Origin: an uncultured Gammaproteobacteria bacterium
GTDB taxonomy: Bacteria; Patescibacteriota; Microgenomatia; UBA10105; UBA927
DNA: 64,000 nt
Assembly: GCA_964629685.1 (NCBI GenBank)
Contig: CAZVTT010000001.1
Location: 319,796-383,795 of the forward strand
Direction of reading: 5' to 3'
Made by a program: the position numbers and the translations under genes. Below, piece after piece: positions 38,662 through 49,739 of this stretch (the stretch's first letter is position 1; the number at the start of each line of letters is the position of its first letter). Under the pieces are notes generated by a model, which saw only the letters and a program-made list of their open reading frames with translations, did not search any database and had not been told where the DNA came from.

Positions 38662-38771
38662 GCTGATATTGCCGTTAGTAGTTTGCAACGTTAAGCTTCA
38701 ACGTGCTATTTTCCACATACTCATAGGTTTTGTTACGGAAAATAGTGAAGGCAACGTAAAATGTTAGGATG

Positions 38772-39824
38772 TTAGAAGGCTAATCCCAGCAGTAGAAGTA
38801 GTATTCCTCCGGCGATTACCGCTATCCCCAGTATGCTTGGACCAGTTCCTGCTACCGGTACTTCCGGTGTCGGCACGGCCGTTTCTCCCGGAGGCAGCGG
38901 TGTTGGGGTAGGTGTCGCTACGTCACAGCTACAATTAGTTTTGTTTGTGCAGGAGGGGTTGCGGCATTTTCCGCTGGAACAAATGAGTCCGTCTTCACAG
39001 TCACCATTATCTGAACATGAATTGTTACAGGATAACGGACAGGAACAGTCTGCTTCGTTTGTGCAGGAAGGATTTCTACATACTCCGCCTGAGCAAACCA
39101 ATCCTGATTTACAATCACTTGTGGCATTACATCCGTTATTACAACTTGCAGGTGTCGGTGTCTGAGTCGGTGTATTTGTTGCGACATCACAGGTACAATT
39201 GGATTTATTCGTACAGGAAGGATTGCGGCAGAGTCCGCCGGAGCAGATAAGCCCATCAGTACAATCTCCGTTGTCTGAACATGCATTGTTACATGCAACC
39301 GGACAGGTACAATCCGACTCGCTGGTGCAGGAAGGATTGCGGCACATTCCGCCTGAACACACTAAACCAGCCTTACAATCACTGTTGCTGGCACAGGCAC
39401 TGTCACAGCTCAATGGTGGTGTGGTTGGAGACGGTGTATTTGTCGGTGTGTTTGATGGTGTGTTTGTAGGGGTTACACACGTACAATCTTCACGATTCGT
39501 ACAGGAAGGGTTGCGGCATAGCCCACCGGAACAAACTAAACCTGCTGCACAATCGGCATTTCTTCCGCAGGATGCATTACAGGCACCTGGTGGGGAAGTG
39601 GGCGTTGGTGTTGGGGATACGTTTAAGGCAAACGTGATTTTGCATGCTTCAGGTTGCTGCACTCTGAATGTAAGTGTACAAGCAGGTGTAGCCGCCTTTG
39701 GTTCGTCCGGAGTAATTGGTTTTGTTTGTTGTAGTCTTAAGCTTGTAATTAGCGTTACGACACCCAGTCCAAGTGTTCCAATAGTAAGTAATGTTATATA
39801 CCAGTATTTTCGGATCATCTTCAT
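38772..39824 (-). CDS. cell-surface protein built from six cysteine-rich modules (C-N-x-(S/A)-C-x5-DC-x2-GL-x-CSGG-x-CRNPSCT-x5-C-(T/S)-C) separated by T/P-rich linkers; N- and C-terminal hydrophobic anchors
   Basis: The pattern is read directly from the translation. N-terminal signal/TM; C-terminal …PEVPVAGTG + hydrophobic helix. Confidence 0.6.
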   Translation of the reverse strand: MKMIRKYWYITLLTIGTLGLGVVTLITSLRLQQTKPITPDEPKAATPACTLTFRVQQPEACKITFALNVSPTPTPTSPPGACNASCGRNADCAAGLVCSGGLCRNPSCTNREDCTCVTPTNTPSNTPTNTPSPTTPPLSCDSACASNSDCKAGLVCSGGMCRNPSCTSESDCTCPVACNNACSDNGDCTDGLICSGGLCRNPSCTNKSNCTCDVATNTPTQTPTPASCNNGCNATSDCKSGLVCSGGVCRNPSCTNEADCSCPLSCNNSCSDNGDCEDGLICSSGKCRNPSCTNKTNCSCDVATPTPTPLPPGETAVPTPEVPVAGTGPSILGIAVIAGGILLLLLGLAF

Positions 39825-39826
39825 AG

Positions 39827-41065
39827 TTATCTCCAGACGCCTCCGATAAAGAGTTCGGCCTCAATGGTAAAGGTCGTCGTGCCACTTGAAGGAATTGTAA
39901 AGTTGAGAATGTATTCTCCGGCATCATTTTTAGCTGACGTTTCGGTGAATGTTCCGCCGTTGACTCTGATTCTGGCTTTGGTTGCGTTCGTTCCGACGAC
40001 TGCAATCACGATGCTGTCTCCCGGTTGCAGGTTGTTCGGATTGACGACTTCACCGTTTCTGTAAATCTTGATGTTCTGACATTGTCCCGTAATATCCGTT
40101 GGTGTCGGTGTATAGGTAACGGTAACTGTCGCTGTGGGCGTGTTCGTTGGCGTGATGGTACATTTGTCGTCGCTGCAGACTACACCATTCTGTAGACAGG
40201 CTGTCAGGACACATTTGTTGGCGCTGCAGGTGTGATTCTGTGGACATTGTGCATTACCGGTACAGGCATTTCCACATTGCGGGTTCGGTGTTGGCGTTGG
40301 TGTCGGTGTCTTGGTTGGAGTAGCCGTCGGTGTTTTGGTCGGTGTGTGTGTTGGTGTATTGGTGTTGCCTGTCGGTGTGGTTGGTGTTGGGGTATTTCCG
40401 CCACCGCCACCACAACTTGAGCTGATAACTTCAAAACTTCCACAACCTAAATTATCCCGTGAGCCTCCACGGCAGACTTCATCAACTTGTCCGCATCCTT
40501 GGGTGTATGCTTTTGCAGCTGCCCAGTTCGGGAAATCATAGGAAAGATTCTCGTGACATTCTCCGCCTGAAAGATTCCCACAACGGTAGGCGTTAATTTT
40601 GCCACAGGTACCTCCGGGACAAAGATCGCCGCCGACCTGATTACAGACGCGATTTCCACTTGTTCCGGTACAGACAAGATTCTGTCCACCGCAACATGGT
40701 TTGTTTTCATCACAAGCCTGTAACTTTGCCGCGCATTGACCATTAGTAGGGGTAGGCGTACTGTACGGACCACTAGCTGCTCGATTCCTAGTGTCTTGAA
40801 CTGATTGTGCACCGAAGTAAATTACCGGAAGTGAAAGCAGCATTAACAACATTACTGCCATCAATATCATCTTTTTCTTGTTATTCTTGCCGGCTGCAGG
40901 TGGAGGAGATGCTGGGGGAACACTGGAACCGGCACTTGCTCCCGGTGTCCATGATCCTGTCTGACCCATTAATGCATCTAAATTCGGTTCAGCTTCCGGT
41001 GTCGGTGGAGGAGTTGTTGCACTTGTTGTATCCGTCGGCTGATTAGCTAGTATGTCTGCTGTCAT
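39827..41065 (-). CDS. N-in membrane-anchored surface protein with two Cys-rich modules, (TP)n linkers and a C-terminal beta-rich domain; copy 1 of a tandem pair
   Basis: 412 aa. A Pro-rich cytoplasmic N-terminus with KNNKKK before a single TM. The extracellular part has CCGG, CPGGTC and CGGGGG motifs, a (TPT/KTP)n linker, and QCGNACTGNAQC…KCVLTAC…CSDDKC. Identical to the next gene except for the first ~8 codons. Confidence 0.6.
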   Translation of the reverse strand: MTADILANQPTDTTSATTPPPTPEAEPNLDALMGQTGSWTPGASAGSSVPPASPPPAAGKNNKKKMILMAVMLLMLLSLPVIYFGAQSVQDTRNRAASGPYSTPTPTNGQCAAKLQACDENKPCCGGQNLVCTGTSGNRVCNQVGGDLCPGGTCGKINAYRCGNLSGGECHENLSYDFPNWAAAKAYTQGCGQVDEVCRGGSRDNLGCGSFEVISSSCGGGGGNTPTPTTPTGNTNTPTHTPTKTPTATPTKTPTPTPTPNPQCGNACTGNAQCPQNHTCSANKCVLTACLQNGVVCSDDKCTITPTNTPTATVTVTYTPTPTDITGQCQNIKIYRNGEVVNPNNLQPGDSIVIAVVGTNATKARIRVNGGTFTETSAKNDAGEYILNFTIPSSGTTTFTIEAELFIGGVWR

Positions 41066-41067
41066 AG

Positions 41068-42303
41068 TTATCTCCAGACGCCTCCGATAAAGAGTTCGGC
41101 CTCAATGGTAAAGGTCGTCGTGCCACTTGAAGGAATTGTAAAGTTGAGAATGTATTCTCCGGCATCATTTTTAGCTGACGTTTCGGTGAATGTTCCGCCG
41201 TTGACTCTGATTCTGGCTTTGGTTGCGTTCGTTCCGACGACTGCAATCACGATGCTGTCTCCCGGTTGCAGGTTGTTCGGATTGACGACTTCACCGTTTC
41301 TGTAAATCTTGATGTTCTGACATTGTCCCGTAATATCCGTTGGTGTCGGTGTATAGGTAACGGTAACTGTCGCTGTGGGCGTGTTCGTTGGCGTGATGGT
41401 ACATTTGTCGTCGCTGCAGACTACACCATTCTGTAGACAGGCTGTCAGGACACATTTGTTGGCGCTGCAGGTGTGATTCTGTGGACATTGTGCATTACCG
41501 GTACAGGCATTTCCACATTGCGGGTTCGGTGTTGGCGTTGGTGTCGGTGTCTTGGTTGGAGTAGCCGTCGGTGTTTTGGTCGGTGTGTGTGTTGGTGTAT
41601 TGGTGTTGCCTGTCGGTGTGGTTGGTGTTGGGGTATTTCCGCCACCGCCACCACAACTTGAGCTGATAACTTCAAAACTTCCACAACCTAAATTATCCCG
41701 TGAGCCTCCACGGCAGACTTCATCAACTTGTCCGCATCCTTGGGTGTATGCTTTTGCAGCTGCCCAGTTCGGGAAATCATAGGAAAGATTCTCGTGACAT
41801 TCTCCGCCTGAAAGATTCCCACAACGGTAGGCGTTAATTTTGCCACAGGTACCTCCGGGACAAAGATCGCCGCCGACCTGATTACAGACGCGATTTCCAC
41901 TTGTTCCGGTACAGACAAGATTCTGTCCACCGCAACATGGTTTGTTTTCATCACAAGCCTGTAACTTTGCCGCGCATTGACCATTAGTAGGGGTAGGCGT
42001 ACTGTACGGACCACTAGCTGCTCGATTCCTAGTGTCTTGAACTGATTGTGCACCGAAGTAAATTACCGGAAGTGAAAGCAGCATTAACAACATTACTGCC
42101 ATCAATATCATCTTTTTCTTGTTATTCTTGCCGGCTGCAGGTGGAGGAGATGCTGGGGGAACACTGGAACCGGCACTTGCTCCCGGTGTCCATGATCCTG
42201 TCTGACCCATTAATGCATCTAAATTCGGTTCAGCTTCCGGTGTCGGTGGAGGAGTTGTTGCACTTGTTGTATCCGTCGGCTGATTTAAAGATTGATTGTC
42301 CAT
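41068..42303 (-). CDS. copy 2 of the tandem Cys-rich/TP-linker surface protein
   Basis: 411 aa, identical to copy 1 from residue ~8 onward. The N-terminus is MDNQSLNQ versus MTADILANQ in copy 1. Confidence 0.6.
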   Translation of the reverse strand: MDNQSLNQPTDTTSATTPPPTPEAEPNLDALMGQTGSWTPGASAGSSVPPASPPPAAGKNNKKKMILMAVMLLMLLSLPVIYFGAQSVQDTRNRAASGPYSTPTPTNGQCAAKLQACDENKPCCGGQNLVCTGTSGNRVCNQVGGDLCPGGTCGKINAYRCGNLSGGECHENLSYDFPNWAAAKAYTQGCGQVDEVCRGGSRDNLGCGSFEVISSSCGGGGGNTPTPTTPTGNTNTPTHTPTKTPTATPTKTPTPTPTPNPQCGNACTGNAQCPQNHTCSANKCVLTACLQNGVVCSDDKCTITPTNTPTATVTVTYTPTPTDITGQCQNIKIYRNGEVVNPNNLQPGDSIVIAVVGTNATKARIRVNGGTFTETSAKNDAGEYILNFTIPSSGTTTFTIEAELFIGGVWR

Positions 42304-42376: not shown

Positions 42377-43714
42377 TTAAAATAAGACTAAAACTCCCGA
42401 TGCAAGTAATACGATTCCGAAAACTAACAGTAGCAATGTCGGTAATGAGGTAGCTGTAGTTGGAATAGGTTGAGGCGTCGCTGATGCGACTGGAGTAGAT
42501 GTCGGTGTAAGAGTGGCTGTGGCAGTAGCGGTGGGCGTAAGGGTAGCAGACGGCGTAGCTTCGCCTAATACTTGTGTACCGCTTTTAAAAATTGTGAATC
42601 CATGAGTGATGGCTACTGGTTTACCTTGAGCATCTACTGTGGTTACGGTGACACTCTGTTTGCCGGATCCCAGTTCTTTCGTCGGAGTATATCTCCATAC
42701 GCCATCGGTTCCTACTTTCGTTGTTCCGCTAAAAGGATTAGTGATACCAAGCGTTATGGTGACTACTTTTGACGGAATGCCTGTACCCTGAATAAGTGGA
42801 AGTCGGCTGGTAAGGGTAGCTCCTTCGGCAGGAGCGTTTAATGATATTTTTTCTGTAGCGAACGTTGATTGAGTCGTTCCGAGTACCGCGGTTTCTTCTT
42901 TTGGAGTAGCGCTAGGTATAGGCGTTACTGTCGGGCTTAGTTGTAAAGCCAGCTGGGCAGTTGCATTGACTTTCGCTTGTTGTTTTCGGAAATCGTATGT
43001 TTTACCGATAATCATTGTCGGTACTGGAGAATCATTAAAGGTGTCGCTCACAGCCGTGGCCTCTTCTTCAGCATATTTTACAACCAATGTTTCGGTTAAG
43101 CGATCCTGTGTGGTTATATACGTATTCAAATCTGTGGTTCGAATTAAGTTGAGTGGGATTATCCATGAACCTGTAGGTTTTACCAGTGCGGAAAGTGTCT
43201 GGCTTCCTTCTAAAGTTAGAAAGATTAGTGCTCCGTCGGCAGGTTGATTGTCAGTTGTAAGTACGGTACCGTAGGCAGGTTCAAGTGATCCTGCGTTCGA
43301 ATCCAGTGTCGGGGCTGTACTTACATGATATGGTTTACCCCCTGCATCATAATATTCTTGCCCGTTTGCAAGTATTTTTAATGTATAGTCGGTTTCCGCT
43401 TTGAGATTTCTTAAAGTAACGCTGTGACTTTGATATTTCCCTAGTTTTCCGTTTCCGTCGCGTTCATCTATAAACGTCTGCGGTCGCTGCTGAGGACCCG
43501 TTAATACCACTGCTCCGGAGGTAGAGCCGCCAGTCAGCCACGTTATTGTTACCGTTGTGTCTGTGATATTTGTAAATTGAATATTAGCAGGTCGTTCGGA
43601 GGGGGATGCTTTTGTAGGACTTCGGAATGCCTGATCAAGTACAACAACAACTCCTACAATCGTAAGGAGCAGTAGTAATCCAATAACAGTAGGAATTTTT
43701 CGCGGAAATTGCAT
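42377..43714 (-). CDS. membrane-anchored surface protein with a fibronectin type III-like domain
   Basis: N-terminal TM; FN3-like PANIQFTNITDTTVTITW…; a long Thr/Ser-rich beta region; C-terminal (T/A/P)-rich linker + hydrophobic helix. Confidence 0.55.
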   Translation of the reverse strand: MQFPRKIPTVIGLLLLLTIVGVVVVLDQAFRSPTKASPSERPANIQFTNITDTTVTITWLTGGSTSGAVVLTGPQQRPQTFIDERDGNGKLGKYQSHSVTLRNLKAETDYTLKILANGQEYYDAGGKPYHVSTAPTLDSNAGSLEPAYGTVLTTDNQPADGALIFLTLEGSQTLSALVKPTGSWIIPLNLIRTTDLNTYITTQDRLTETLVVKYAEEEATAVSDTFNDSPVPTMIIGKTYDFRKQQAKVNATAQLALQLSPTVTPIPSATPKEETAVLGTTQSTFATEKISLNAPAEGATLTSRLPLIQGTGIPSKVVTITLGITNPFSGTTKVGTDGVWRYTPTKELGSGKQSVTVTTVDAQGKPVAITHGFTIFKSGTQVLGEATPSATLTPTATATATLTPTSTPVASATPQPIPTTATSLPTLLLLVFGIVLLASGVLVLF

Positions 43715-43926: not shown

Positions 43927-44628
43927 CTATTGTGTTTTTCCTTTTAGTGAATAGTACCCTTGAAGTCGGATTACAAGTCTTAGTGATTTTGGTGCTAATG
44001 GGTCATCAGATACCTCTTCGTCTTTGAGTGAACTGATTATCGAAGAATTAACGGTAACAATTCGTCTCATGTTAATAACCCCTTCAAGAAATGCTTTGAT
44101 GTTTGAGTATGGCCCGTTGACCGAAACAACCATAGGAACTATTTTTTCTTTCGGCTGGTTTTGGGTTTTTTGACTGCTGGGCGTAGCTTCCTGTCCCAAT
44201 AACGGGATACTGGGAATTGAAATTGAGCTCACTGTAACTTGTGTCTGTTCTGCTAAATTTTTTAATTGGAATACCAGTGTTAATGCATCCGGTGTTTCCG
44301 GTACTGCCTGATCAATAAGCGGTAACTGATCTTCAATAGCCTGATAGTTTGCTTGAGCCTCAATCAGGTTTGTTATTTTTTCTTCCATTATTTTATTTAC
44401 GACCGTATTATCGGCAATTTCCCGTCTGAGGAATAAAATTGTTTGTAGTGTCGGGCGTATTCCGTACCAACCAAAAAGTGAAATTGCAAGAAATGAGAAA
44501 ATTGTGGTGGTATACGCACGATTTTTAGGTTTGCTTATCAATGGTTCAATAGTCTGATAGTACCGTTTATATTGTTGATAATTTGGTTTTTGATTGACTG
44601 CCATATTATTTTTTCTTTGGTGTCGCAA
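43927..44628 (-). CDS. pilO: type IV pilus assembly protein PilO-like
   Basis: N-terminal TM, coiled-coil and C-terminal alpha/beta region. Overlaps the upstream pilN-like gene by 23 nt. Confidence 0.5.
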   Translation of the reverse strand: MRHQRKNNMAVNQKPNYQQYKRYYQTIEPLISKPKNRAYTTTIFSFLAISLFGWYGIRPTLQTILFLRREIADNTVVNKIMEEKITNLIEAQANYQAIEDQLPLIDQAVPETPDALTLVFQLKNLAEQTQVTVSSISIPSIPLLGQEATPSSQKTQNQPKEKIVPMVVSVNGPYSNIKAFLEGVINMRRIVTVNSSIISSLKDEEVSDDPLAPKSLRLVIRLQGYYSLKGKTQ

Positions 44629-45157
44629 TAAATGCGGTAATTTTAAATTGTATCCCCACTAAAGGTTGTTTTTTTATATCTCCAACTTCGATTTGAGTAA
44701 TTTGTTTTGTACTTTGAAGGTTTGCAATAAATTGTGAGAAACCTGTGGTGCTCCCAGCCGTTGCGCTTATAAGAATTCTCTCGGGACCATAGTCAAGTGA
44801 TTCTAAGTAAACATCGGGTGGCAGTAGCGTCTGGAAAAGAGAAACCATTTCGACTGGTTTCGATTGGTTGTTTAATAATGTGTTTACATTTACAAGTCGT
44901 TCCTGAAGTTGTTTAAATGAAGCCTCAAAGTCTTGATTAGCTTTTAGGATTGCCTGCTTTTGGCCAATTTCCTCTTTAAGGTCGGTTAATTTACGGTCGA
45001 GACTAAATCGGGAGATAAAGGCGAGTAATACAATTATCTCAGTGCCGATCATGATATATCGGCCATACGTTACCGCCCACGTAGTAATTCTGCCAATGGG
45101 CGAGTTCTCCAGATCATCACGTTGTAATAAATTAATTGTCGGAGTCTTGGCAGGCAT
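44606..45157 (-). CDS. pilN: type IV pilus assembly protein PilN-like
   Basis: Conserved N-terminal INLL motif (…TPTINLLQRDD…) followed by a TM helix, a coiled-coil and a C-terminal ferredoxin-like domain. Confidence 0.6.
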   Translation of the reverse strand: MPAKTPTINLLQRDDLENSPIGRITTWAVTYGRYIMIGTEIIVLLAFISRFSLDRKLTDLKEEIGQKQAILKANQDFEASFKQLQERLVNVNTLLNNQSKPVEMVSLFQTLLPPDVYLESLDYGPERILISATAGSTTGFSQFIANLQSTKQITQIEVGDIKKQPLVGIQFKITAFIATPKKK

Positions 45158-45199: not shown

Positions 45200-45436
45200 T
45201 TATTTCTTAAGCAGTTTAGCTAACCTCGATTTTAGACGATCAGCTTTGTTCTGGTGGATTACATTGCGTTTTGCAGCCTTATCGAGAGTCTTGAACGCTG
45301 AAGTCAGTGTTTTTTCTGATGGCTTTTTACGCATTGATTTAACAATTTCACGTACTGACTCTTTCGTAACACGATTTGTCTCCGTGCGTTTTCGGTCGTG
45401 GCGAAGTTTTTTTATGGCACTAGCAATAATTGGCAT
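45200..45436 (-). CDS. rpsT: 30S ribosomal protein S20
   Basis: 78 aa, highly basic, S20 signature (…AIKKLRHDRKR…NRVTKES…). Confidence 0.9.
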   Translation of the reverse strand: MPIIASAIKKLRHDRKRTETNRVTKESVREIVKSMRKKPSEKTLTSAFKTLDKAAKRNVIHQNKADRLKSRLAKLLKK

Positions 45437-48710: not shown

Positions 48711-49739
48711 TCAGTGCAGTACGATCGGGATACTTATTCCGGCAATCAACAGTATACTGGCAAGTGCAATCAAGAGATAGGTATTGTCCATAATGCCGGT
48801 AACAGGTACAGCACTGGAGGTTGATGTGGATGTGCTGCTTTGAATAATAAATGTGGTACTTGTTGTTTGGCTGGCTCCTGTCGTTGTATCTGTTGCCGTT
48901 ACTACTAACTGATGTGATCCGGTTGTTAGGGCAGTCTGCGGTGTGAAACTCCAGTTTCCGCTGCTGTCTGTCGTAGTCGTTCCCGTTTGCGGAGCAGAGT
49001 AAATTGTTACGGTAATTGTGGCACTCGGTGTGGCTTTTCCCTGAAACGTAGGACGGGTAGTAGTTAAGATACTATCTTTGGTAGGATAGGTTATAAGTAA
49101 TGCCGAACCGGAAGCCGTACCTGTTGGCGTGGGGGTTGGCGTAAGCGTAATTGTTCCGGAAGGATTGGGAGTAGTGGTGGGGGTAGGTGTTCCGGTTCCA
49201 CCTGCTCCTGTGCCTTCGGTGATAGTAACGGTAGCGCCATTTTGACCGCTTAGGGCGTTCGTTGTACCTTCACCAGGACTTCCTACAAACGTGTTCGATG
49301 CGAATCTAATTGAAATCGGTGTATCGGTTTTCTGTAATGCTTTGAACTTAACGGTGGCTACAGTACCTGTTCCTTTAACCGGTTGGGCAGCGCTTGCAGC
49401 ACCTACCGTGATGGATGCGACGCCTTTATCAACAACTCCGGATGCCAGGATGTTGGGGAAAAGCGTCCCATTGGTAATTGTTTCCGCTTCCAGTTTTGTT
49501 TGATCAAACGTGAGATGGATTTCTGCCGCTATGACTTGGTTGTCGCCAGTATCAATTGTGACATCAAATGAAAATTCATCGCCTATTTTTTTAGTGATTT
49601 TTGAAGGAGTAATGGAGAGCACTGTTGCCGGTGCAGCACGTTTCCGCAGTTCGGTATTTCGTTGAACCAGCAATACCGTAGCAGGTATAGCTATTACGAC
49701 TAAAAGAATACTTATGAGCAGGAATAATTTCTTCATCAC
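48711..49739 (-). CDS. surface protein with cohesin-like domain, T/P-rich linker and C-terminal VPVTG + hydrophobic anchor
   Basis: N-terminal TM; cohesin-like beta-sandwich (…FSFDVTIDTGDNQVIAAEIHLTFDQTKLEAETI…GTVATVKFKALQ…); (TPTP)n linker; C-terminal SSAVPVTG-hydrophobic helix. Confidence 0.5.
   Translation of the reverse strand: MMKKLFLLISILLVVIAIPATVLLVQRNTELRKRAAPATVLSITPSKITKKIGDEFSFDVTIDTGDNQVIAAEIHLTFDQTKLEAETITNGTLFPNILASGVVDKGVASITVGAASAAQPVKGTGTVATVKFKALQKTDTPISIRFASNTFVGSPGEGTTNALSGQNGATVTITEGTGAGGTGTPTPTTTPNPSGTITLTPTPTPTGTASGSALLITYPTKDSILTTTRPTFQGKATPSATITVTIYSAPQTGTTTTDSSGNWSFTPQTALTTGSHQLVVTATDTTTGASQTTSTTFIIQSSTSTSTSSAVPVTGIMDNTYLLIALASILLIAGISIPIVLH

Follow-up and report, generated by a model that had tools for sequence, protein, structure and literature searches.

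In a 64,000-nt stretch of contig CAZVTT010000001.1 (positions 319,796 to 383,795 of its forward strand; hereafter the window), the gene that closes a compact same-strand run headed by rpsT encodes a 350-aa protein built around five copies of a 35-aa module with eight Cys residues. We posit, with a probability of about 0.6, that this protein is a Sec-exported, envelope-anchored, disulfide-stabilized stalk or spacer of a Microgenomates/Gottesmanbacteria-like bacterium of the Patescibacteria. The Patescibacteria account for a large part of bacterial diversity and are believed to live in attachment to other cells, and most of their surface proteins are unannotated. Judged by its sequence, the module combines the familiar with the undescribed: its core appears to be a known element, a DPY-like two-disulfide hairpin related to the knottin scaffold, whereas the complete eight-Cys unit appears to have gone undescribed.

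Module anatomy

The reading frame lies on the minus strand, where a protein homology search returns 128 homologues (best E 8e-83). A pattern search and a self-alignment delineate five modules in the protein, each with the spacing C-x3-C-x5-C-x5-C-x4-C-x4-C-x5-C-x-C (Cys residues C1 to C8) and a single CRNPSCT core; 18 of the 35 columns are invariant among the five copies, and not one aromatic residue is found in any of them. The 42 Cys residues, 12% of the protein, comprise 5x8 in the modules, where the last two form a C-x-C motif, and two in an N-terminal motif. From the N to the C terminus, the protein passes from a predicted signal-anchor through ACTLTF/ACKITF, module 1, a 23-aa linker, modules 2 and 3 (joined by PVA), a 15-aa linker, modules 4 and 5 (joined by PLS), and a Thr/Pro stretch to VPVAG and a 22-aa hydrophobic C terminus.

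An initial annotation of this gene had described six copies of a 35-aa, eight-Cys module with an invariant CRNPSCT core. The size, the Cys count, and the presence of the core in every copy (5/5) were confirmed by the pattern search and the alignment, but the copies number five, not six. The pattern written for the repeat made two of the gaps too long, for a total of 37 aa; the corrected form is C-[ND]-x-x-C-x4-D-C-x2-G-L-[VI]-C-S-[GS]-G-x-C-R-N-P-S-C-T-x4-C-[TS]-C.

The module copies are 60-76% identical at the DNA level, with a third-codon-position identity of only 0.37-0.57 and an amino acid identity of 0.54-0.83. Tandem Repeats Finder reports no module-length DNA repeat, and the sole DNA tandem repeat (12 nt x 3, 39432-39467) lies inside the Thr/Pro linker after module 1. 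Because third-position identity is low and a module-length DNA repeat is lacking, the copies are taken to be old duplications kept by selection on the protein, and neither chance nor an artifact of assembly. Modules 3 and 5 are 83% identical in amino acid sequence, and the two module pairs have their junction and a following DVAT in common, which suggests that a two-module unit was duplicated. The opposite strand is unusually open: one plus-strand frame holds 2 stops in 1053 nt, where ~18 would be expected, giving open reading frames (ORFs) at 38833..39165 and 39199..39849. These antisense ORFs are compositional artifacts, as had been proposed at the outset, and the 128 homologues support the minus-strand frame only.

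A DPY-like core in a probable four-disulfide unit

The whole protein has no match in Pfam or NCBIfam at E<=1. A profile built from 88 modules finds as its best match in the PDB 1OIG, the DPY module of Drosophila Dumpy (E 2.4e-4), with positions 6-27 (sCtsnsdCasglvCsggvCRNp) aligned to ECVLNSDCPSNQACVNQKCRDP. Four homologues (P0009, P0018, P0022, and P0028) pass the Pfam model PF21164 Dumpy_DPY with 32.5-38.6 bits (cutoff, 27), and the window modules stay below that cutoff, at best 17.8 bits for module 2 and 13.5 bits for the five-module array. DPY is a two-disulfide module, Cx5Cx5Cx4C followed by x-D-P, with 1-3 and 2-4 pairing, and Dumpy arrays many of these small beads in a long extracellular, presumably load-bearing protein (PMC12723725). 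Because C2 to C5 have exactly the DPY spacing in all five modules (Cx5Cx5Cx4C, then R-N-P), the CRNPSCT core corresponds to the CRDP(C) end of DPY. A match to an epidermal growth factor (EGF)- or anaphylatoxin-like family, which would have identified the module as a known one, was not found: no module matches the EGF or anaphylatoxin (ANATO) Pfam families at E<=10, and betacellulin and TGF-alpha chains reach only E 0.17-0.46 when the module profile is compared with the PDB.

AlphaFold2, supplied with an 88-sequence alignment, models module 3 with a mean predicted local distance difference test score (pLDDT) of 89.2; in this model residues 10-12 form a short turn or helix, and residues 18-20 and 23-26 a beta-hairpin. 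In a model of the di-module formed by modules 4 and 5 (pLDDT 76; predicted template modeling score, 0.47) the same elements appear twice, and AlphaFold, the check originally recommended, thus yields a confident beta-hairpin mini-domain for the single module and the same hairpin in each half of the pair. The di-module model is least reliable at the junction and over the C-terminal third of either module; we therefore envisage the modules as independent beads without a confidently fixed mutual orientation. The suggestion of a new disulfide-rich fold therefore survives in part. The complete unit, in which two disulfides are added to a DPY-like core within 35 aa, is listed in neither Pfam, NCBIfam, nor the PDB, and no description of the eight-Cys module was found in the literature searched. 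A new fold as such is unsupported, because the core matches DPY, a known two-disulfide hairpin, and because the model is a small disulfide-braced hairpin.

Natural variants bear on the disulfide pairing. Eight modules in six proteins (P0064, P0066, P0086, P0097, P0106, and P0197) lack C6 and C8 together and retain C7, following the six-Cys pattern C-x3-C-x5-C-x5-C-x4-C-RNP[NQ]NP-x4-C, and one module, a single case in P0110, lacks C2 and C4 together. This co-loss of Cys residues, combined with the DPY precedent, suggests the pairing C1-C7, C2-C4, C3-C5, and C6-C8, which is not a cystine knot. A Cys content of 12%, the C-x-C motif, and faint Pfam matches to zf-CCCH-type families (E ~1-7) could instead evoke metal-binding clusters of the metallothionein or zinc-ribbon kind, in which the Cys residues would not form disulfides at all. 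The loss of Cys in pairs, the significant similarity to a solved disulfide module, the confident model obtained without metal, the predicted extracytoplasmic location, and the presence of a VKOR oxidase gene in the window make this idea hardly credible.

Behind 1OIG, the module profile gives weaker matches to a squash trypsin inhibitor, the kiwellin N-terminal domain, conotoxins, and carboxypeptidase inhibitors. The structural neighbors of the module (knottins, squash inhibitors, kissper, and Dkk) are all weak, and there is no significant structural match to solved knottins. Could the protein be a surface-displayed, multiheaded protease inhibitor, with each module a knottin of the squash trypsin inhibitor or potato carboxypeptidase inhibitor type? 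The profile matches (squash trypsin inhibitor 1MCT, E 0.012; metallocarboxypeptidase inhibitors, E ~1), the Foldseek alignments with squash inhibitors and MCoTI cyclotides (TM ~0.5-0.66 over ~20 residues), and sub-threshold Pfam matches to CarbpepA_inh and Squash point that way. The likeness is, however, confined to the two-disulfide hairpin that both possess; nothing in the module corresponds to the reactive-site loop that squash inhibitors carry between knottin Cys I and II, a knottin Cys IV is missing, and the pairing proposed above does not form a cystine knot. We consider an inhibitor improbable.

The structural neighbors also include conotoxins, spider toxins, and cyclotides, and the size and Cys density of the module resemble those of animal and plant toxins. 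Kissper, which has the spacing C-x3-C-x5-C-x5-C-x4-C, is liberated proteolytically and makes pores in vitro (PMC9813671). A polyprotein precursor cut at its linkers into secreted 35-aa Cys-rich peptides, similar to toxins or bacteriocins, would fit these observations, yet we regard it as very improbable: the linkers differ in length (3 to 23 aa) and lack any conserved motif for cleavage, most family members hold only one or two modules directly before the membrane or wall anchor, and the conserved gene neighborhood contains no gene for a maturation protease or an exporter.

Family and conservation

The 128 homologues, found among 5.8 billion clustered proteins, are all hypothetical proteins, and those with a named host come from Patescibacteria or Candidatus Gottesmanbacteria. 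The exact query sequence gave no record when looked up among public assemblies. A search for further relatives, also recommended in the initial annotation, was productive: against 1.84 billion cluster representatives, the module profile matches 2119 proteins at E<=1e-3 and 314 at E<=1e-10. Local hidden Markov model analysis of 240 fetched proteins identifies full eight-Cys modules in 183, which contain one (51 proteins), two (84), three (32), four (10), five (3), six (2), or eight (1) copies; with five, the window protein stands at the high end of the family. A further 50 of the 240 match only the central part of the module, 10-50 times each. Conservation extends beyond the Cys spacing across 385 distinct modules from the 183 proteins, with R23 present in 89%, N24 in 92%, G20 in 75%, L15 in 70%, and P25 in 64%, so that the module is more than a pattern of Cys residues.

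A scan of a genome collection with the five window modules gave four confirmed loci, three of which bear the labels of metagenome-assembled genomes (uncultured Gammaproteobacteria, Methanosarcinales archaeon). At locus L009 (7749..8315), the neighboring surface genes resemble those of the candidate phyla radiation (CPR), at odds with the label of the record. At L010 (6763..7872), the module protein is CPR-like and the remaining neighbors are uninformative, and the conflict with the label is less clear. L011 (6666..11300), of which this one ORF was read, encodes a giant Cys-rich protein of 1544 aa with one CRNPSC module among CGDG...GE-CDDGN repeats, which look like the Myxococcus-type cysteine-rich repeat. 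The record labels may be unreliable, or the module may occur outside the Patescibacteria.

Predicted export and anchoring

The predicted signal-anchor of the window protein has counterparts in its homologues, which begin with MKFIKKYWY, a hydrophobic stretch, and then VAPxVPQ. A C[TS]L[TS]F-like motif follows ~20 aa past the N-terminal hydrophobic segment in 48 of 121 family members. A single Cys at this site is usual, and the total Cys count is odd in 95 of the 121, which would be consistent with a free thiol or with a disulfide between molecules; the neighboring 412- and 411-aa proteins likewise have an odd number, 23. Two other interpretations of the N terminus were rejected: a type IV pilin, on inspection by eye, for want of a G/FTLIE-type prepilin motif, and a lipoprotein attached via an N-terminal Cys, since the Cys lies ~20 aa beyond the hydrophobic segment.

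At the other end, the window protein finishes in ...LLLGLAF and its homologues in ...LLLGLAL, and only 1 of 105 tails that follow an LPXTG-like motif has Lys or Arg in its last 8 aa. The same kind of tail is present on unrelated surface proteins, among them a cohesin/Big_13 protein (48711..49739, minus strand) and fn3/Big_13 proteins. In a comparison that covered the window (42377..43714 and 48711..49739) and loci L001, L002, L004, L006, and L009, such tails open with VPTSG, VPVTG, IPTTAT, or IPDSG and continue into a hydrophobic segment in which basic residues are mostly lacking. The recurrence points to a C-terminal signal for sorting or anchoring that is common to the lineage and escapes the LPXTG model TIGR01167. 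A canonical LPxTG motif with a basic tail does occur in some of the proteins found with the module alone (P0122, P0124, P0190, and P0145). Sortases are encoded in the genomes of Microgenomates, Peregrinibacteria, and other CPR bacteria, and Cys-rich extracellular proteins are carried by CPR bacteria (PMC7143001, PMC4736985). The initial view of the product as extracellular and disulfide rich is supported by the predicted signal-anchor, the LPXTG-like motif and tail, the Thr/Pro linkers, the VKOR gene, and the neighboring envelope genes.

Eight module proteins (P0126, P0131, P0141, P0152, P0167, P0173, P0192, and P0204) end differently, with a basic tail, roughly K-K/R-x-x-F-E-x-K-I/V, in place of the hydrophobic one. 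This tail may be a cytoplasmic segment and may reflect another mode of membrane anchoring.

A proposed beaded stalk at the envelope

We posit that the protein would be exported via its N-terminal signal-anchor and oxidized outside the cytoplasm, with VKOR as a possible oxidase, to form five independently folded 35-aa beads of four disulfides each on a Thr/Pro string. One single bead and two tightly joined pairs would be separated by extended Thr/Pro linkers. Within a bead, the DPY-like hairpin (C2-C4 and C3-C5) would be closed by the C1-C7 bond, acting as a staple, and the C6-C8 bond would close a small C-terminal loop. VPVAG and the tail would hold the protein at the membrane or cell wall, serving either (i) as a plain anchor or (ii) as the substrate of a sortase-like enzyme, and the beads would act as a rigid spacer, resistant to proteases and shear, that projects or organizes surface proteins. 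Relatives place DUF11, Ig-like, or large uncharacterized domains N-terminal to the modules, and it is because the module sits just before the anchor, beneath these varied head domains, that we favor a spacer role. Stalk length would then be set by the number of modules (1-8), and the window protein would be a nearly headless stalk.

The main alternative is an adhesin: the modules themselves would bind, with the invariant R-N-P-S loop as the contact, and the multivalent array would attach the cell to a host or surface. R23 and N24 are indeed conserved at ~90%, which is more than a disulfide scaffold needs; the gene cluster is headed by pilN/pilO-like genes; and CPR bacteria are believed to live as episymbionts dependent on surface structures, with their Cys-rich extracellular proteins proposed to function in attachment (PMC4736985, PMC11623550). 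However, the modules lie next to the anchor and under DUF11, fn3, or Ig-like domains that are themselves candidate binders, as expected of a stalk and not of a tip; the five window modules are devoid of aromatic residues; and CR(N/D)P recurs in the DPY module of Dumpy, where it is thought to be structural. On balance, we judge the adhesin unlikely, if worth keeping in mind. Carbohydrate binding of the hevein or lectin type was rejected, there being neither a match to such a family nor aromatic residues in the window modules.

Several points weigh against the stalk. A spacer role leaves the ~90% conserved R-N of the CRNPSC loop unexplained, and the proposed pairing is drawn from homology and from Cys co-loss in a few proteins. 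The query tail lacks a basic end and does not match TIGR01167, to which the tail of homologue P0016 scores 11 bits against a cutoff of 15.9. No sortase was found in the window by motif and Pfam searches, or in 11 related loci by motif alone, and the C-terminal tail may be a simple transmembrane helix. Finally, the whole-protein homologue set, in which the last module precedes the motif by a median of 14 aa, is biased with respect to module position, as the query included the tail; in the less biased module-only set, an xPxxG-type signal is found in 44 of 71 proteins (62%), and the median distance from the module to the end of the protein is 57 aa.

Gene neighborhood

Table 1. Features of the five-module protein and selected genes of the window (coordinates in the 64,000-nt window)
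Feature	Residues (aa)	Position (nt)	Strand	Remarks
Coding sequence of the 350-aa five-module protein		38772..39824 (stop codon included)	minus	ORF list; 128 homologues
N-terminal signal-anchor (predicted)	1-28	39741..39824	minus	basic MKMIRK and 20-residue hydrophobic stretch, read from sequence
Duplicated motif ACTLTF ... ACKITF	48-67	39624..39683	minus	two non-module Cys
Module 1	82-116	39477..39581	minus	CNASCGRNADCAAGLVCSGGLCRNPSCTNREDCTC; regex match and alignment
Linker after module 1 (23 aa), Thr/Pro/Asn-rich	117-139	39408..39476	minus	
Module 2	140-174	39303..39407	minus	3-aa junction PVA to module 3
Module 3	178-212	39189..39293	minus	alignment; AlphaFold model, pLDDT 89.2
Thr/Pro linker (15 aa)	213-227	39144..39188	minus	
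Module 4	228-262	39039..39143	minus	3-aa junction PLS to module 5
Module 5	266-300	38925..39029	minus	
LPXTG-like motif VPVAG	322-326	38847..38861	minus	[LIVT]Px[STA]G at same place in 105/121 homologues
C-terminal hydrophobic tail	329-350	38775..38840	minus	no basic residues at end
Upstream neighbor, 412 aa, 23 Cys		39827..41065	minus	variant 8-Cys module at 40160-40276
Cys-rich paralogue, 411 aa		41068..42303	minus	variant module at 41401-41517
fn3/Big_13 surface protein, 445 aa		42377..43714	minus	IPTTAT and hydrophobic tail; orthologues 50-55% identical
Conserved membrane protein, 64 aa		43720..43914	minus	orthologues 65-83% identical in syntenic loci
PilO-like gene		43927..44628	minus	Pfam PilO, E 2.5e-8
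PilN-like gene		44606..45157	minus	Pfam PilN, E 1.6e-7
rpsT		45200..45436	minus	head of run
VKOR-DHO_dh fusion, 522 aa		1718..3286	plus	VKOR, aa 13-135, E 1.9e-25; DHO_dh, aa 204-500, E 4.9e-49

The best minus-strand promoter-like site (45472-45444) lies upstream of rpsT. Four other genomes, among them Gottesmanbacteria GCA_001003345.1 and two represented by contigs of ~1 Mb, repeat the order rpsT-pilN-pilO-small-fn3-Cys-rich-module gene, and in these the module gene always ends the cluster, with TIM and UvrD next in line. Across the syntenic loci, orthology holds for the fn3 protein, for the small protein, and for the Ig-like C-terminal domain of the Cys-rich neighbor; the module protein has 2-3 modules in the syntenic orthologues versus five in the window. 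The cluster adjoins genes for MurJ, two FemAB proteins, and GH39, and the window also carries BacA, glycosyltransferases, two GH130 genes, DnaK/DnaJ/GrpE, and NusA/IF-2; its gene content is that of a chromosome segment of the Patescibacteria type. In L001, L002, L004, and L006, a LytR_cpsA_psr (LCP) gene in convergent orientation separates the module gene from TIM. This LCP gene is absent from the window locus, where the gap between the module gene and TIM is only 110 bp (38662..38771).

The PilN/PilO-like genes directly follow rpsT and head the surface-protein cluster in at least five genomes, with neither pilM nor other pilus genes nearby; their products could be components of a type IV pilus or of some other complex in the envelope.

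The module is not restricted to the gene at the end of the cluster. The 412-aa neighbor is composed of an N-terminal transmembrane segment, a Cys-rich domain, a Thr/Pro linker, a variant module, and a C-terminal Ig-like domain, and the variant module that it shares with the 411-aa protein (CGNACTGNAQCPQNHTCSANKCVLTAC...) keeps the same first six spacings. The corresponding 477-aa neighbor in L001 bears a CRNPEC module, and P0053 fuses a neighbor-type N-terminal region to two modules and an anchor. Sequence comparison thus portrays a module that appears to move between neighboring gene families. The two Cys-rich genes of the window form a tandem duplication (39821..41044 and 41062..42285; period, 1241 nt) with 100% identity over 1224 nt, and their products differ in the first few codons only; at the same place, L001 has two divergent genes, of 477 and 523 aa. 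The perfect pair either arose by gene conversion or a very recent duplication or is an artifact of assembly.

At a distance from the cluster, the window encodes a fusion of an N-terminal VKOR domain to a domain of the dihydroorotate dehydrogenase family (DHO_dh). Bacterial VKORs often carry a thioredoxin-like partner, unlike this fusion, in which disulfide formation may be linked to a flavin or quinone enzyme. Its product is a plausible candidate oxidant for disulfide formation outside the cytoplasm.

Implications and comparison with known systems

The analysis reveals no new mechanism. For annotators, it supplies a domain definition: a recurrent 35-aa block, probably with four disulfides, above a lineage-typical anchor in hundreds of surface proteins. 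The distribution of the module in the Patescibacteria, its association with a [LIVT]Px[STA]G anchor devoid of a basic end, and its conserved place in a pilN/pilO-headed cluster are undescribed in Pfam, NCBIfam, the PDB, and the literature searched. Experimenters gain a module that is small and probably very stable, along with a candidate signal for sorting. A bolder extension, which we hold to be quite unlikely, casts the protein as a covalently assembled, Dumpy-like tether, that is, a fiber with a Microgenomates-specific sorting signal and N-terminal cross-links that holds the episymbiont on its host. Were this so, (i) [VIL]Px[STA]G without a basic end, found on three unrelated surface proteins, would mark a sorting pathway specific to the Microgenomates; (ii) the lone Cys of CTLTF or a nearby Lys would cross-link subunits head to tail or to a neighbor; and (iii) the fiber of disulfide beads would work with the PilN/PilO-like proteins to hold the ultra-small episymbiont.

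In its overall layout, the protein recalls the LPXTG sortase substrates of Gram-positive bacteria, with which it shares a predicted N-terminal signal, a repetitive Pro/Thr-rich region, an [LIV]Px[TSA]G motif, and a terminal hydrophobic segment; FemAB genes lie nearby, and an LCP-family gene adjoins the module gene in relatives. It departs from them in having no basic tail and in that the Gly of the motif is preceded by Ala or Ser, not Thr. Among bacterial proteins, the 4-Cys repeats C-x2-D-x-D-C-x2-G-x2-C-x2-G-x-C of P0121, P0125, P0128, and P0132, which match module positions ~5-25 some 10-50 times per protein, have the DPY-like core in common with the module; they lack C1, the C6/C7/C8 tail, and CRNPSC, and they form head-to-tail arrays without Thr/Pro linkers or the N- and C-terminal signals of the patescibacterial proteins.

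Outside bacteria, kissper, a part of plant kiwellin (PDB 4PMK/4X9U), is the top Foldseek neighbor (TMq 0.60 over 35 columns), and its first five Cys residues are spaced like those of the module and lie among similar residues (SCNGPCRDLNDCDGQLICIKGKCN versus SCNNSCSDNGDCEDGLICSSGKCRN), although the E-values are not significant (0.013 by sequence and 0.61 by structure). The six-Cys variant of the bacterial module even resembles the kissper Cys pattern. Kissper differs in having 6 Cys, in occurring as a single copy, and in being fused to a double-psi beta-barrel, and kiwellins have not been detected in bacteria (PMC9813671). Knottins share with the module a small beta-hairpin whose two bracing disulfides correspond to knottin II-V and III-VI, but no module residue aligns with knottin Cys IV, the pairing proposed for the module is not knotted, and knottins are secreted soluble effectors, whereas the module is a repeated, anchored unit. 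The module core also appears to fit the disulfide-directed beta-hairpin (C...C-x2-G-x2-C...C), which has been put forward as the precursor of knottins.

The closest counterpart is DPY itself. In the bacterial core, as in 1OIG, x-N-x-D precedes and C-R-(N/D)-P follows. The bacterial unit differs in its four extra Cys residues (C1, C6, C7, and C8), which would make it a self-contained four-disulfide domain of 35 aa, and in its setting, since the bacterial modules lie between Thr/Pro linkers, whereas DPY modules are sandwiched between EGF modules. Its bearer is, moreover, a bacterial and probably envelope-anchored protein, and the resemblance could reflect either common descent or convergence. 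By either route, a DPY-type disulfide hairpin, known from an insect matrix protein, appears to have close look-alikes in bacteria.

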